From Nitrospirota bacterium (GTDB taxonomy: Bacteria; Nitrospirota; Thermodesulfovibrionia; Thermodesulfovibrionales; Dissulfurispiraceae), in NCBI GenBank assembly GCA_040758355.1, contig JBFLWF010000047.1, forward strand, positions 1-13,677: a stretch of DNA of 13,677 bases. Reading direction: 5' to 3'. The position numbers are program-made. Below, piece after piece: positions 8,948 through 13,677 of this stretch (positions within the stretch are counted from its first letter, which is position 1; every line of letters starts with the position of its first letter).

Positions 8948-11900
8948 TTAATTCACTAAAACTCTTTAACTTAGAATAAGGATAAAGTGTGGACATTGCC
9001 TTGCTTTCTGTTGGTATACCCGACTCTTCAATGGCAGCTATAGGATTCAGACCTCCGACAATAACAATACCCACCTTGTCTATCCCTACCGCGACCTCTA
9101 AGAGCGGCTTGTTCGGACTGCCGATGAGCAAAATGCCTCCAATGCCTTTATCCTTCATTTCCATGGCAAGTCTCTTTGCCTCATCTATGCATACAACGGG
9201 TATTTCCCTGAAACTCGCCAGTATCTTCCCTGAATAGTTTTTTACCGCTCCTAATACATCCGTCATCTTGCTCCTGATAAATATCTCAAGCGGGTCAAGG
9301 GAAGAACCGTCGTAACTTATCAATGATATAAACCTCACCGGCCTTCCTTCGTTAATCTCAACAACCCCTCCGAATCTCGATGTTACGGGTATTCCAGCCT
9401 TGAGAAATATCCCGTTTATCGTAACGCTGCAGACAGTGCCGATTCCCATCATTCCGTGAGGTATTGTGATATCTCCTATCATTTCTCCTCCCCTTGCAAG
9501 GATTATCCTGTTGCTCATAACATACGGTGATGAGAATACAGGTTTTAAAATTTTCAGGGCGTCTTTGATCCTCTCTTCAGGGAAATATGAGATATTGAGT
9601 ATCACATCGCCGTCCATTGTTCCAAGGTTAAGTGTGGTGAGATATGAAAGGGATTCTATTCTGCTTATTACGAAACCGACCTTTTCCGACACTAAGGCAC
9701 TTTCGAGTTCCTTTCGTCCTTTTTCGGTTATCCTCCTCCCCTCTTTTCCAAAAACCTCTGTATAGCCCCGCTCATCGAGAATTCTGAGATGATAGCGCAC
9801 TGTCCTTTCAGTAAGGTCAATCCCGTGCATTTCCAACTGCCGTGATATTTCCCTCGAACCGACAATATCTGCACATTTGTCCAGTATCTTTAAAATTGCG
9901 AGCATTGTTTTATTCATCTTACTATCTCCTAAATTGAGCGCTTTTGTAAGGCAGGCACTGCTGCAAGACTTTAAAAAGTCCCCGTTCATGTGCATATGAG
10001 AAATTATAGATGCATCATCTATCAAGTATCCAATGTAGTAGATGACGGATACAAGATAAAAGTTTACACAAGTGCGGAGTTTAAAGTCTTTCCGCAGCAC
10101 CTGCCTTACAAATCTGAATATAAAAACCGCTCAACTTGGATAAGGCGGGATTGTCTCCCGCCTTATCCTCTTTATTTAGTCAAACAGTATCTTCTCTGCC
10201 TCTTCCATGTCTGCTTCCATCACATAGGGTATCCCTGTCACCTCTGCTGCCTCTTTGGTCAGAGAGACAAGATCGTCCCTGTCGAGATGCTTGATTGCGA
10301 ACTTCCTTGCTCCTGCCATGAGCTGCTGGAGTCCGAGTTTGAGCCTGTCCGCGAATGTGTACATGGCAACTGCTCCCCACGGCAGTTTTTCAAAATCCTT
10401 ACCGAATTTGTTTTTAAGCACTTCTGTGGTTATAAATATCCTCTCCGGCACATCACCGTATTTTTTAACCTCTGTGGGCAGTTTGTCCTCCTGCGCCCAT
10501 TTCTGTATGTTCTTGCCCACAAATGCAGGAATCATGAGCGCCCTTCCCATGCACACTGCCTTGAAGAACGGTGCGCCCATTGCCAGTGCCTTGAATATAT
10601 GGTCTTCGAGGGAGAATCCTCCTGCTATGGCGAGGTCAGGGACATATTTGCCCTTTGCCTTTAACTGTGATGCAAACTGATAAGCGATAGACTGCAGATA
10701 GATTGTAGGGATTCCCCATTCGTTCATCATCCTCCACGGGCTCATTCCTGTGCCGCCGCCTGCACCGTCAATGGTTACAAAATCAACGCCTGCATCAGAT
10801 GCGAACCTCAATGCCCTGGCAAGGTCGGTGATCCTGTATGCACCTGTTTTAAGAGACACAAACTTTGCGCCCGCGTCCCTGTAGTGCTTTACTGCCTTTA
10901 CAAAACCCTCATGCTCAACCATGCCGAGCCTTGAGTGCCTTTCGAACTCCTTGAATTCTCCTTCCTGAAATGCCTTCTGGTTTGTGGGATTTTCAGGGTC
11001 AGGGAGCACAATATACCCCTTCTTCTTTAGTTCCAATGCCCTTTCGAGTGTCTTGAGTTTCACCTCTCCGCCGATGTCCTTTGCACCCTGCCCCCATTTA
11101 AGCTCTATGCAGTTTACTCCCAATTTTTCTATGGCATACTCGGCAGAGCCAAGCCTTGTGTCTTCAACATTTTGCTGGAGGATTATTTCTCCGTAGCCAT
11201 TGTACCACTCTTTAAAACACTTGACCCTCCTTTCAAGTTCCGGAGACTTTGTTACCCTGCCTTTTTTAAATTCAGAATTAGTGTCCATCCCGACAACATT
11301 CTCTCCGATAACCACCATAATCCCTGAAATTGCAGCGCCTATGGCAAGCCCTTCCCAATTGTCCTTTGCTATATCGGTTGAGCCCAATGCCCCTGTAAAA
11401 ACAGGCAGGTTGAGCTTCACCTTATGCTTGTTTCCTATCTCTGTTTCTGTGGAAACAACAGGGAATATTGCCTTGTCAGGGTCAGCTTCAACTCCAACAG
11501 CGCCAACACATGTACCCTGAATATTGATGTGCGAATAATCTACCGGATATTTTTTAGTTGCCCCGGCTGTTATTTTTCCGAAGGGCATGGGATATATAAC
11601 CTCTCTGCCCCTGTATGATGATTTTCCGACCTCGCATGGACCGGGACATCCGTCAAGACATACAGAGCATATGCCTGAATACGGCGCCGGATCCGGGACC
11701 CTGTTCCTTGTCCCTGTTGCTGAACTTGCATTTGGTTGACCTTGATGCATAAAAGACCTCCAATAAGCAATACTTAATTCTTCTGGGCTTGAATTCAGTA
11801 TTAATAACCCAAAAGGGCAAAAAAATACCTAAGGTATTTTTTGCCGGAATTCAGATGTTAAAATTTCATTTTCCTTTACTGCCATATTACCAGTATCTCT

Positions 11901-13677
11901 GCGTCATCACCTCCTTCATTCTTCCACCCTGATGGAAAGGATTCCTTCAGATAGAGACTATCTCCTGAACTTAACCTTTCAGTCCTGCCGTCAAAGGTTA
12001 TCGAAAGGTCTCCCTTCAGGATATGTATAAACTCGGGTGTTCTGCGATAAAAAAAATGCCTGCTTAATGCTTTATGAGCAGGGAAAAGAATCAGCATTGC
12101 AGAAAGCTTTTCTTCGGAGACTATGCGGTACATTTTTACACCATCTTCCACATTTGCAGGAACAGAAACAACCGTCCCTTTCTTAAAAAACCACTGTCTT
12201 ATATCAGGAGTCTTTTCTTCAAGAAAATCACCCGGCCTTACACCAAGGGCATTGCATATCTGCAGAAAGGAACTGAGAGAGGGGCTTATCTGATTATTCT
12301 CCAATTGAGAGATAAAACTGGGCGTAAGCTCAACCTTATCTGCAATATCCTTCTGGCTCATTCCCCTTGACATTCTTAATTCCTTTATTTTGGTTCCGAT
12401 ATCTGTAACCGGTTCTTTTTTAGGCAATGTTATTACAACACCCATGTCAGCAATCTCGTAAAGATGGGGCTTGAACGCATCCCTATTATGCCTGCCGGTA
12501 AGTTTCAATGCCTTTATGTACAGGTTCTCTCTCCTTTTGTACACGTCAAATACAACCTGTGTGATATGTCTGAGGTTTGCCTTGAATTTCTGGCTGTGGG
12601 CATCCTTTTCCAGTATCCAGTAAGCGACTGTATCGAGGTCGTAGAGACGCGGACACATATATGTAAAAAACTTGTATGTATCGTTTTCATCCTCCCAGAG
12701 ATCCTGCATTCCTGTCAGGCTGTCGAATACATATCTTGCTCCGGGGGAAAGGCTGTCCTCTATGGAATTGAGGGCAGATGTGAACTCATCGATATTCCTC
12801 GGATTGGTTATCCTTACGACATTGATATCTTTCGATGACTCGTAGAATCTTAAAAACGTATTATCATTTTTCCCCTTGCCAGATGTGAAGCAATCGATAA
12901 GAATAAAATGCTCAGGAATAAGAAAGCTGTCGAGTTCATGGAGAACGCTCTGCGGAGACCTGTTGAAGCTCACATAAATTACCTTTTGTGAATCATTGAT
13001 GGAACGAATGATGAAGTTCTTTATAAAGATATCATAAGATGTTCCTGCATCGACCTCCCAGACAACATTATCCCCTATGTACAGGGAATCGATAAGCCTG
13101 TCCAGATCGCTTATGCCGGATGATATTTTGCTCATGGTAAACGGTTGCCTTTTGGCATAACTTTATACGATATAAAAAATCCTTGTCAAGAACGATGACA
13201 GTGCCATAATCCGTAAGCATGGATAGCAGGTATGCTCTCAAAGCCTTAAATAATGCGATGAGAAACCGTATTGCCTGTTTTTCTGCTGAATGTAAAAAGT
13301 GATACTGAAGTTGCCCTTAAACAGCGGGAGGGTTCGGCTCTAAGGTATCGCTATTTAAGGCTTTTCGGCACACCTGCTATCCATATATCAGAAAGTTTCA
13401 TTACGGTTTATGGACAGCAAGGCCTCAGTTGACAAAGAATATCCGCACTTTTTACAATAAACGAGTTTAGACGGCAAACGGTTACCGTTTTAGCGTCTGA
13501 TACCGCATGGTATAGACGCTTTTTTTGCCTGCCTAAATATATTATAAAAATAGGCTCATCGTGGAAGAGAGTGGGTAAACCGATGGACTTGAAGCGGTAT
13601 AACATGGCTTCAAATAATGGGGAAAGAGCTTTCAAAGGGGCGAGAAAATCCGTATGATTACCGTATGGGAAAAAATA

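Follow-up and report, generated by a model that had tools for sequence, protein, structure and literature searches.

In methanogens, the signal read by the nitrogen regulator NrpR is 2-oxoglutarate. The known NrpR operator, GGAA-N6-TTCC, comes from Methanococcus maripaludis (PMC2723118), and in Escherichia coli the regulator Nac represses gltBD, with gdhA unchanged (PMC9853098). Moreover, gdh of C. thermocellum is 64-fold lower under ammonium limitation (PMC9888227), and the targets of ANTAR proteins are for the most part nitrogen genes (PMC3369931). As to sensory modules, inactivated KaiC-like domains (iKaiC), among them MEDS (PF14417), DUF835 (PF05763) and iKaiC-REC, have already been described, as far as the available part of that account goes (PMC5847659); inactivated KaiC input domains are thus a described class, and the concept is not new.

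Here, we analysed a contig of 13,677 nucleotides (the window, i.e., the whole stretch studied) from a Nitrospirota bacterium of the Dissulfurispiraceae, which carries a regulator gene (REG) and, downstream of it, a glutamate-synthase-related gene (GSR). Our literature search found no paper on REG, its operators or GSR, nor any on NrpR nitrogen control in anaerobic Nitrospirota; surveys of KaiC-like ATPases or their supplements may list the architecture.

Organization of the locus

The first-pass annotation had placed a glutamate synthase gene, nrpR, P-II and glnA in this order after REG. ORF calls and Pfam searches gave the same order, all on one strand, with a 524-aa ORF matching Glu_synthase next to REG. 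The features are listed below, M1 and M2 being two conserved palindromes.

11876..13135, minus strand: REG, regulator gene, 419 aa, with inactivated KaiC-fold domain, XRE HTH and cupin (ORF, Pfam, structure search)
12425..13135, minus strand: inactivated KaiC-like domain of REG, residues 1-237
13031..13054, minus strand: degenerate Walker A position of REG, residues 28-35, Tyr-Asp in place of Lys-Thr
12221..12400, minus strand: XRE HTH of REG
11882..12148, minus strand: cupin domain of REG, weakly conserved
13160..13189, minus strand: REG promoter of sigma-70 type (TTGACA, 18 nt, TAAAGT)
13136..13149, strandless: M2 palindrome GGYAA-N4-TTRCC, abutting the REG start codon; predicted NrpR operator
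13429..13486, plus strand: divergent sigma-70 promoter (13429-13458) and second M2 site (13473-13486)
11816..11845, minus strand: terminator-like hairpin and T-tract 3' of the REG stop
11815..11820, minus strand: -35-like hexamer TTGCCC of the GSR promoter
11793..11809, strandless: M1 operator 1 (of the TTAAG-N5-CTTAA type), between the -35 and -10 elements and covering the latter's position; putative binding site of REG
11762..11778, strandless: M1 operator 2, 31 bp further downstream than operator 1, adjoining the ribosome-binding site (11757-11761)
10176..11750, minus strand: GSR, 524-aa glutamate-synthase-related FMN-barrel protein, not GltB2
8925..9917, minus strand: nrpR (wHTH and NRD), likely start 9917
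8597..8938, minus strand: P-II (glnB/K), overlapping the nrpR stop
7272..8600, minus strand: Type I glutamine synthetase, 442 aa, overlapping the P-II stop

The nrpR start was placed at 9917 because the called 391-aa ORF begins within a dispersed repeat. The terminator-like hairpin after REG overlaps the -35 element of the GSR promoter, and TTGAC is conserved 5' of most REG homologs. In relatives, the divergent promoter with its second M2 site drives gltB1-B2-B3; here it enters a multi-copy repeat at the contig end. Two long hairpins (9928-10137 and 13204-13413) were considered as 6S RNA or riboswitch and discarded, being dispersed repeats without an Rfam match; Rfam gave no match in any of the seven loci searched.

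REG carries an inactivated KaiC-fold domain

The architecture proposed for REG, a KaiC-like domain followed by an XRE HTH and a cupin, was confirmed by Pfam matches to ATPase/KaiC (residues 5-237, E 3.6e-8), HTH_3 (250-303) and Cupin_2 (365-418), all of which pass the Pfam cut-offs. The KaiC fold, which had earlier relied on weak matches, is now firmer, since the AF2 model (pLDDT 84) matches PH0284 with Z 24.4 and an rmsd of 2.3 A over 217 residues; KaiC and SSO2452 match at Z 23-24 (KaiC CII, Z 24.1). REG has a single KaiC-type domain (residues 1-240), not the tandem CI-CII of circadian KaiC. Alignment with SSO2452 agrees with a dead Walker A, Y34-D35 standing at the Lys-Thr pair and N58 at the catalytic Glu (the TEE Glu of SSO2452), where most of 60 domains have N, D or A. 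The pattern [GA]xxxxGK[ST] was absent from the first 120 residues of the 120 homologs listed, of the 81 locus proteins and of 150 representatives, the homologs numbering 1954 proteins at E<=1e-10. The degenerate motif had been called identical in the seven relatives inspected, but the string varies (EVDAGTS, EIEAGSS, QVDSGVP and others), and what stays constant is that GK[ST] has been lost; in a domain that is strongly conserved elsewhere, the P-loop varies. Judged from its sequence, the KaiC-fold domain of REG is predicted to be unable to hydrolyse ATP.

Among 43 sequences, 82 of the 237 columns of the KaiC-like domain are invariant, against 14 of 62 in the HTH and 2 of 89 in the cupin, making it the most conserved part of the protein, with the signature GDN-x-x-W, CP-x-L, TQ, K-x3-R. 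The residue that we take to be the Walker B Asp from its hhhhDS pattern, D138, occurs in 51 of the 60 domains, with E in another 6; K211 and R215, spaced K-x3-R, are retained in 58/60 and 55/60, respectively, and may correspond to the trans-acting K-x-R finger of KaiC. Furthermore, a Gly-Lys-Gly loop is conserved among XRE-fused members and missing in 17 of 17 PPDK-fused domains, and the HTH helix TPS(F/T)ISQxE is common to REG of the Nitrospirota and of a distant subfamily.

The dead KaiC-like domain also occurs fused to PPDK-like enzymes, sigma-54 activators, histidine kinases, a protein kinase and DUF835, and heads a divergent PPDK-like gene at three loci (L049, L067, L076); it is a mobile module, presumably for input, across signalling proteins and enzymes. 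The earlier proposal of a nucleotide sensor found no support, the P-loop Lys/Thr and the catalytic Glu being gone. A REG-NrpR hybrid (P0065) was encountered a single time and probably reflects a deletion or misassembly.

The downstream gene GSR

The gene downstream of REG had been annotated as an archaeal-type glutamate synthase. This identity did not hold, as the Pfam match spans residues 279-407 alone (E 5.6e-16), identity to true GltB2 is 26% over 249 aa, and GSR is without the C-terminal cysteine cluster of true GltB2. That cluster, CxxCxxxxC at these loci, is assumed here to have a 3Fe-4S role. Across 87 GSR proteins the near-invariant cysteines are C28, C31, C35, C39 and C400 only, the four N-terminal ones being called invariant. 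The true gltB1-B2-B3 operon of the source genome was located on another contig (C56); among 80 loci, GltB1 is present in 41, and GltB1-B2-B3 forms a unit of its own, with its own GltB2, divergent from REG in 26.

Alignment by hhalign (probability 89, 249 columns) places GQGAK, K-x-RG and DG-x-GGGTG of GSR against GltB2, motifs that presumably serve FMN/2-oxoglutarate binding. GSR falls into three subtypes with 55-63% identity. PDB sequence and profile searches returned only IMPDH and designed barrels, with no solved relative of GSR, and its single-sequence fold reached pLDDT 36 only. GSR is a separate FMN/Fe-S family and a distant homolog of GltB2. Databases automatically name the GSR-type family 'FMN-binding glutamate synthase'; methanogens, Omnitrophota and Chloroflexota are represented in its Atlas clusters. 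Across genomes GSR and GDH do not exclude one another, many having both or neither, and GSR as a genome-level substitute for GDH was rejected. Clo1313_1848/1849 of C. thermocellum, considered as a possible link, encode NfnAB.

Gene linkage across genomes

REG had been described as always upstream of this gene. In the Nitrospirota that is nearly so, GSR coming next in 74 of the 76 GTDB loci with the downstream gene in view and gdh in the remaining two, these loci being related and overlapping the genome sample so that their counts are not independent. In the distant subfamily it fails: GSR was the next co-oriented gene in 0/60 loci, REG and GSR often being linked there in other orientations. 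GSR was present in 50 of 54 REG genomes, REG in 50 of 55 GSR genomes, and NrpR in 53 of the 54 REG genomes. Usually nrpR lies 3' of GSR with no promoter-like site between, and glnA and P-II often belong to the same gene run as REG and GSR. Several loci of the distant subfamily have P-II and GlnD immediately ahead of REG, and GAF-ANTAR genes adjoin GSR in this subfamily; neither nrpR nor M2 was seen in its loci.

Two conserved palindromes and their distribution

M2 abuts the start of REG and is found ahead of gltB1 and glnA as well. With at most one mismatch it occurs in 56 of 76 REG promoters and before 22 of 39 gltB1 genes, and 30 of the 37 matches examined precede gltB1, glnA or REG. As a promoter pattern it was found in 43 of 53 NrpR genomes (16 of the 21 of those without REG) and in 1 of 24 without NrpR, with zero control matches. 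M2 has the 14-bp GG-N10-CC palindrome format at nitrogen-gene promoters and occurs where NrpR occurs; the source contig holds no exact copy of GGAA-N6-TTCC. In the source genome, nif and amt genes have no strong M2; inspection by eye shows sigma-54-like sites there.

M1 is a pair of TTAAG-N5-CTTAA palindromes, separated by 31 bp and spanning the -10 region upstream of GSR or gdh. Of 81 regions downstream of REG, 72 have it at a fixed spacing, and in 64 of 71 the second copy follows after 30-31 bp. It precedes all three GSR subtypes (69/72) as well as gdh; M1 was trained on REG-GSR spacers, and its presence there is circular. In the source genome, the REG-GSR spacer is the sole composite match. 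The exact pattern was found in 35 of 54 REG genomes (19 being without it), in 3 of 247 others and in 0 of 22 with NrpR but without REG, the reversed-pattern control matching 15 of 301 genomes. The exact matches of G122, G160 and G199 sit away from the REG locus, and two loci (L032, L033) have REG and GSR without the composite element. Upstream of 51 nrpR, 31 P-II and 11 glnA genes, M1 was absent. In a single draft genome with REG and GSR (G266) no NrpR was found; it keeps the M1 palindrome (16.9) and has no M2. In G110, G256 and G290, from three genera, all that is left of REG between M2 and M1 is deletion remnants, and a full-length GSR match persists; their M1 scores are 15-31 against a median of 47, and G256 and G290 retain operator 1.

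Given the tight co-occurrence of REG and GSR, M1 could be a feature of the GSR promoter; the link is broken only by three GSR-less REG genomes (G050, G069, G224) and by the distant subfamily. There, 8 of 12 regions have the M1 core ahead of GSR (shuffle mean 0.6), and a search with -35+13 geometry gave 12 matches in 560 kb, 9 of them before GSR (0-4 in 20 shuffles), with a relaxed pattern written after its sites were seen. These sites occur mostly where GSR is convergent to REG, with the GSR promoter far from REG, and they keep the M1 spacing from the -35, which is consensus TTGACA at 8 of 9 GSR sites and TTGCC/TTGTC in Nitrospirota. Of 8 distant gdh loci, none had M1 in front of the gene.

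M1 is read as a DNA site because an RNA structure, suggested by a stem round the first box in several loci, left one pair (14:36) above expectation across 72 regions, and because the spacing to the -35 is rigid. A sigma-54 reading of GG..TTGC was dismissed, the spacing being mostly 9, not 10, and a perfect M1-like site before an AbrB-like gene, so labelled by eye (G000:C20:40800), was taken as chance.

Proposed circuit and alternative readings

The suggestion of a nitrogen-linked transcription regulator with a dead KaiC-fold domain can now be given a candidate operator and a possible position under NrpR. We favour, with a probability of about 0.6, a two-tier nitrogen cascade in which NrpR represses REG, and REG, a one-component repressor with the dead domain as input, represses GSR or gdh. 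As the motif distribution suggests, NrpR would bind M2 at the REG start and at the divergent gltB1-B2-B3 promoter, so that under nitrogen shortage, with 2-oxoglutarate rising, REG would be made along with true glutamate synthase. The XRE domain of REG would then bind the two M1 palindromes, three helical turns apart, at the -10 region and near the ribosome-binding site, shutting the promoter of GSR, or of gdh where present, and the cell would shift from a nitrogen-replete glutamate route to GS-GOGAT. With nrpR behind GSR and no promoter-like site between, the loop may be double-negative. We infer both the pairing of protein with motif and the sign of control; repression is favoured because operator 1 covers the -10 and GSR stays full-length in the three REG-deletion genomes. 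The -10 under operator 1 matches the consensus poorly, which is also compatible with activation, and repressing under nitrogen shortage an operon that can hold glnA (within the REG-downstream gene run in 10 of 80 loci) is counter-intuitive.

Activation of the GSR promoter by REG, with GSR as a second-wave nitrogen-limitation enzyme and nrpR behind it as negative feedback, seems to us decidedly unlikely: the weak -10, the Nitrospirota -35 without TTGACA, the gene runs shared by GSR with glnA and P-II, and the GAF-ANTAR neighbours in the distant subfamily, ANTAR targets being mostly nitrogen genes (PMC3369931), speak for it, but operator 1 overlaps the spacer and the -10, with operator 2 further downstream, GSR outlives three REG deletions, distant GSR sites mostly carry consensus TTGACA, and gdh, a nitrogen-replete enzyme in C. 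thermocellum (PMC9888227), can hold the same promoter. We consider it very unlikely that M1 is read by NrpR or an unlinked factor, or is merely a conserved promoter, REG autoregulating via M2 or acting elsewhere. Such a reading would fit NrpR being near-universal in REG genomes, the survival of M1 in G256 and G290, and M2 abutting the start codon of REG, XRE proteins being usually autoregulatory. Nevertheless, M2 is present in most REG-less NrpR genomes and missing in the sole NrpR-less REG genome, M1 behaving in reverse; M1 does not precede nrpR, P-II or glnA, and it persists in the distant subfamily, in whose loci nrpR and M2 were not seen.

Regarding the input of the repressor, the KaiC-fold domain would act in sensing and oligomerisation. 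Tentatively, and at somewhat less than even odds, the signal may be a small anion of the glutamate/2-oxoglutarate/glutamine node, held between subunits via K211/R215, N23, Q193 and the DCFTxGKG loop. Alternatively, the domain could be a protein-docking surface through which REG is switched by GSR, GDH, P-II or the PPDK-like paralog bearing the same domain. KaiC-fold domains are known docking platforms, and GltC of Bacillus subtilis is under trigger-enzyme-style control; the tight REG-GSR co-occurrence, P-II and GlnD immediately 5' of REG in several distant loci and the divergent PPDK-like genes favour this alternative, which is nonetheless unlikely, as the partner varies (three GSR subtypes, or a GDH of another fold) while the domain stays highly conserved and is also fused to kinases and sigma-54 activators. 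Slightly less probable again is that the dead domain still binds a nucleotide (ATP, ADP or another) and thereby informs the DNA-binding domain of the energy status: the whole fold is kept, with the Walker B Asp, K211, R215 and, in XRE-fused members, the Gly-Lys-Gly loop, but the P-loop Lys/Thr and catalytic Glu are replaced, the P-loop varies within a conserved domain, and that loop is absent from every PPDK-fused domain.

A wider and rather improbable picture would make the dead-domain subfamily a hitherto unrecognised nitrogen sensor of the glutamate node, evolved from a dead ATPase and connected to no fewer than five outputs (XRE-cupin, sigma-54 activator, histidine kinase, protein kinase, and a PPDK-like ATP-grasp enzyme beside gdh), the Nitrospirota version being a bistable, double-negative NrpR/REG switch between GS-GOGAT and GSR. 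GSR would then be a new single-subunit FMN/Fe-S enzyme interconverting 2-oxoglutarate, free ammonia and glutamate with ferredoxin, i.e., a non-homologous counterpart of GDH in anaerobes.

In practical terms, the analysis yields two concrete predicted operators: that of an uncharacterised regulator family, which comprises about 2,000 sequence clusters, and that of a bacterial NrpR. The iKaiC class gains a member with a predicted DNA read-out, which eases ligand screening, and the widespread 'FMN-binding glutamate synthase' family is flagged as a probably separate enzyme beside true glutamate synthase, from which it seems to be regulated differently.

Comparison with known systems

Like the REG domain, the iKaiC domains combine a KaiC fold lacking ATPase motifs with the role of a mobile signalling module (PMC5847659, in its available part). 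The REG domain differs in its own signature and in bacterial fusions to XRE-cupin output and PPDK-like enzymes, of which the available part of that account makes no mention; neither MEDS (PF14417) nor DUF835 (PF05763) was among its 12 Pfam families at E<=0.1, and its nearest Atlas clusters are archaeal KaiC/RAD55-like proteins (0.89-0.91). With XRE-cupin regulators such as PuuR (NCBIfam PRK09943) and the Vibrio cholerae protein 1Y9Q, REG shares HTH_3 and cupin over residues 245-418; it has, in addition, an N-terminal domain of 237 residues whose conservation exceeds that of the cupin, and it is not PuuR, scoring 47.4 bits against an equivalog cut-off of 211. As a candidate palindrome-binding XRE-cupin regulator, REG has a putative operator, M1, that tracks the gene. 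Archaeal-type GltB2 and GSR, in turn, are distant homologs, with 26% identity and a different cysteine set, and true GltB1/B2/B3 coexist with GSR.

At the upper tier, the M. maripaludis NrpR regulon likewise has a 14-bp GG-N10-CC palindrome at glnA and other nitrogen promoters that tracks NrpR, whereas M2 reads GGYAA-N4-TTRCC, lies at sigma-70 promoters and has gltB1, glnA and a second regulator as its main predicted targets. The cascade as a whole resembles NtrC-Nac of E. coli, in which a first-tier regulator induces a second-tier one acting at sigma-70 promoters of glutamate-forming enzymes (PMC9853098). The proteins are unrelated, however; the REG cascade would follow a double-repression logic, and REG apparently acts on a single target or on very few.

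Inactivated KaiC-like domain of the regulator

The regulator (REG) and the glutamate-synthase-related protein (GSR) encoded 3' of it lie among the following features of the window, where M1 is the predicted REG operator and M2 the predicted operator of NrpR:

4088-7238, following glnA and sharing its strand, a tRNA nucleotidyltransferase-like gene (A-adding) and a MerR/HspR-like gene, the latter with a cysteine-rich tail
9928-10137, hairpin element of about 200 nt
10176-11750 (-), GSR, 524 aa
11762-11778 (operator 2) and 11793-11809 (operator 1), two copies of M1
11876-13135 (-), REG, 419 aa
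13136-13149 and 13473-13486, M2 sites, the best two in the genome
13204-13413, hairpin element of about 200 nt
13544-13677, end of a repeat

The Pfam scan divided REG into a KaiC-type ATPase domain (residues 5-237), HTH_3 (250-303) and Cupin_2 (365-418), with no match to MEDS or DUF835. The first-pass annotation had assigned the KaiC-like fold from weak sequence matches, on which it no longer depends, since residues 1-240 of an AF2 model built from a 43-sequence alignment (pLDDT 84) superpose on PH0284 (Z 24.4 with an rmsd of 2.3 A over 217 residues) and likewise match KaiC and SSO2452; at the level of the model, the fold is confirmed. The dead Walker A was also borne out. Aligned with SSO2452, Y34-D35 occupies the Walker A Lys-Thr position and N58 that of the catalytic Glu, and a scan of residues 1-120 detected no Walker A pattern in 120 homologs, 81 locus proteins or 150 representatives. 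Despite the lost catalytic residues, this domain is the best conserved part of REG (invariant columns 82/237, against 14/62 in the HTH and 2/89 in the cupin); strong selection acts on what is a dead enzyme fold. The HTH helix TPS(F/T)ISQxE is common to the Nitrospirota proteins and to a distant subfamily, the relatives found with a Desulfoluna-cluster query. Our guess at the input signal of the dead domain would favor a glutamate-node metabolite over a partner protein, and the latter over a nucleotide.

The dead domain is mobile across protein architectures. Residues 1-237, searched against 1.84 billion representatives, retrieved 593 proteins carrying it at E<=0.001, and in 60 scanned from the best 150 of these the partners were XRE (30), PPDK_N (17), GAF plus sigma-54 activator (3), PAS/GAF (3, two being histidine kinases), protein kinase (1), DUF835 (1) or no other domain (5). 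Over the 60 aligned domains G7, D12, N23 and Q193 are invariant and K211 (58/60), C161 (57/60) and R215 (55/60) nearly so, while the DCFTxGKG loop is absent from all 17 PPDK fusions. Named members of the 10 clusters checked are from Desulfoluna, Planctomycetota and Spirochaetota.

Some of these fusions were observed near REG itself. Proteins of about 870-885 aa joining the inactivated KaiC-like domain to a PPDK_N ATP-grasp domain (L049:5098-7752, L067:5059-7719 and L076:5188-7794, all on the minus strand) are encoded divergently from REG, with gdh nearby; the distant subfamily instead has a REC-PPDK_N protein upstream of gdh. Such PPDK_N proteins are possibly regulators or modifiers of GDH. 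A single database protein (P0065), with the first 370 REG residues joined to the NrpR C-terminus, is likely a deletion or misassembly.

Neighbouring enzyme and gene linkage

The gene 3' of REG had been called an archaeal-type glutamate synthase, a name that did not hold: its Glu_synthase match in Pfam is restricted to residues 279-407, and identity to true GltB2 is 26% over 249 aa. Barrel motifs are nevertheless common to both (hhalign probability 89), and C28, C31, C35, C39 and C400 are near-invariant among 87 GSR proteins, which form three subtypes 55-63% apart; the Atlas holds GSR as an auto-named family. True gltB1-B2-B3 is a separate unit, GltB1 being present in 41/80 loci, directly divergent from REG in 26/80, and on another contig (C56) in the window's genome. 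Genes of the third GSR subtype have ferredoxin and NuoE/NuoF/FdhA-like genes after them, or else aldehyde:ferredoxin oxidoreductase (L031, L036, L041, L042, L051, L063, L065 and L007, L010, L012, L073), which suggests a dedicated electron supply.

REG had been described as always upstream of this gene. Among the best 80 of 197 GTDB relatives, nearly all the closest loci being from Nitrospirota, 76 loci had the next gene in view, which was GSR in 74 of them and gdh in the other 2. In 301 genomes of the phylum, REG occurred in 54 (one a fragment), GSR in 55, both together in 50, and NrpR in 75. In the distant subfamily (the 80 best loci out of at least 532 from metagenomes, 60 with the next gene in view), GSR was the next same-strand gene in 0/60, convergent in 15, co-oriented after one intervening gene in 2 and divergent upstream in 5, and gdh was convergent in 4. 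Consequently, "always upstream" stands for Nitrospirota only. GSR was found anywhere in 26/80 distant-subfamily loci and a nitrogen gene in 20/30 of those of at least 8 kb, other neighbours being GlnD with P-II, REC-PPDK with gdh, GAF-ANTAR, glnA and gltB. The functional link, however, outlasts gene rearrangement.

Predicted operators

In 72/81 regions 3' of REG we detected a T-tract followed by TTG(C/T)C and, at a constant distance of 16 bases, RCTKA. The M1 element is a doublet of TTAAG-N5-CTTAA, with a spacing of 30-31 bp in 64/71, and the composite has a single match in the window's genome. M1 stands before the first GSR gene in 69/72 cases, all three subtypes included, before only 1/15 second GSR copies, and before gdh where gdh is next after REG (matrices excluding L039, a mis-anchored row). 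At threshold, the palindrome lay upstream of 2/73 REG, 5/39 gltB1 and 2/4 gdh genes, and of 0/51 nrpR, 0/31 P-II and 0/11 glnA genes. An exact pattern, selected to fit 60/72 training rows, occurred in 35/54 REG genomes (three of the 35 matches away from REG), 3/247 others and 0/22 with NrpR only; the reversed control matched 15/301.

Since covariation was weak, M1 is read as DNA and not as an RNA structure. A relaxed core, devised once the sites of the distant subfamily had been seen, lay there upstream of 8/12 GSR (shuffle mean 0.6) and 0/8 gdh genes. With the core at the same 13-base offset from the -35, 560 kb gave 12 matches, nine before GSR, 8/9 of these with TTGACA (20 shuffles, 0-4); because this offset is kept, TTGCC is taken as the -35, with operator 1 covering the -10.

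Several leaders were observed to carry further features. Six GSR leaders (L044, L050, L057, L060, L013, L018) keep a full GGAGGTG directly after operator 2, with the real start codon and its own ribosome-binding site about 70 nt on. In L136, L150, L176 and L185 a terminator-like hairpin ends the leader, preceded in some by short hairpins that we take to resemble ANTAR sites; a GAF-ANTAR gene lies near GSR in L150, L176 and L185, among others. An M1-like palindrome also stands between REG and a small gene of divergent orientation that weakly matches the RAMA domain and adjoins carB (L139, L140, L145, L147, L165, L177, L193; gene where in view), a possible further REG target.

The REG promoter itself presents TTGACA followed by M2 (GGYAA-N4-TTRCC) at the start codon. 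M2 occurs with at most one mismatch in 56/76 REG promoters and before 22/39 gltB1 genes, and 37 matches in 30 loci examined included 15 before gltB1, 8 before REG and 7 before glnA. Across 77 genomes chosen by gene content, promoter plus M2 was present in 16/21 with NrpR without REG, 27/32 with both, 0/1 with REG alone and 1/23 with neither; the control pattern had no matches.

The repeat at 13544-13677, probably an IS, recurs at 24 other places (97-100% identity), mostly contig ends, and lies immediately beyond the divergent promoter and M2 site whose counterparts in relatives drive gltB1. On C56 of the window's genome 161 nt separate the gltB1 start from the contig end, and the insertion may separate the gltB operon from its NrpR-controlled promoter. 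Two further contigs (C45 and C46) carry nifHDK-like genes, several amtB/glnK and a second glnA (470 aa), with sigma-54-like promoters by eye and without strong M1 or M2; the 470-aa glnA type carries M2 in several relatives. Both hairpin elements belong to dispersed MITE/ERIC-like families (41 other copies of at least 120 nt for 9928-10137, 14 for 13204-13413) without a match in Rfam, and the former leads ORF callers to extend nrpR. The nucleotidyltransferase-like and MerR/HspR-like pair also follows glnA in several relatives.

Proposed circuit and comparison with known systems

We propose that nitrogen shortage would release NrpR from M2, so that REG and true glutamate synthase are made, and that REG would then close the GSR or gdh promoter via two sites on one helix face. 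Natural losses bear on its sign. In G110, G256 and G290 only REG remnants persist, between M2 and M1, with M2 and a full-length GSR match kept (M1 scores 15, 31 and 22; training median 47, minimum 19). These three losses sparing GSR are more easily reconciled with REG as a repressor than with REG as an activator that GSR needs, although two of the three still keep operator 1. In G266 (99% complete draft), where NrpR was not found, REG, GSR and the M1 palindrome are kept and M2 is gone. No sigma-70-like site was found in 41 GSR-nrpR gaps (median 118 nt); nrpR may therefore be carried on the transcript that REG controls, closing a double-negative loop; most gaps contain a hairpin, and co-transcription would need read-through. 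Against the circuit stand the occurrence of glnA within the GSR-nrpR gene run (10/80 loci), the weak -10 of the GSR promoter, two loci without the M1 element (L032, L033), GSR and GDH not being mutually exclusive across genomes, and the kinship of the loci counted, which also overlap the genome sample.

A full-text literature search, mostly without subscription papers, returned nothing on the REG regulator, its operators or GSR. The parts are all of known kind (inactivated KaiC domain, XRE-cupin, NrpR, second-tier regulator), and it is the combination, operators and target enzyme that we did not find described there. Inactivated KaiC domains are an already described class (PMC5847659), and NrpR repression in methanogens depends on 2-oxoglutarate (PMC9765008); the NrpR operator of M. 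maripaludis, GGAA-N6-TTCC (PMC2723118), shares its format with M2 but differs in its letters. GDH of C. thermocellum falls 64-fold under ammonium limitation, the textbook pattern (PMC9888227), and the layout of the NtrC to Nac cascade resembles that from NrpR to REG, although Nac represses gltBD and left gdhA unchanged there (PMC9853098).
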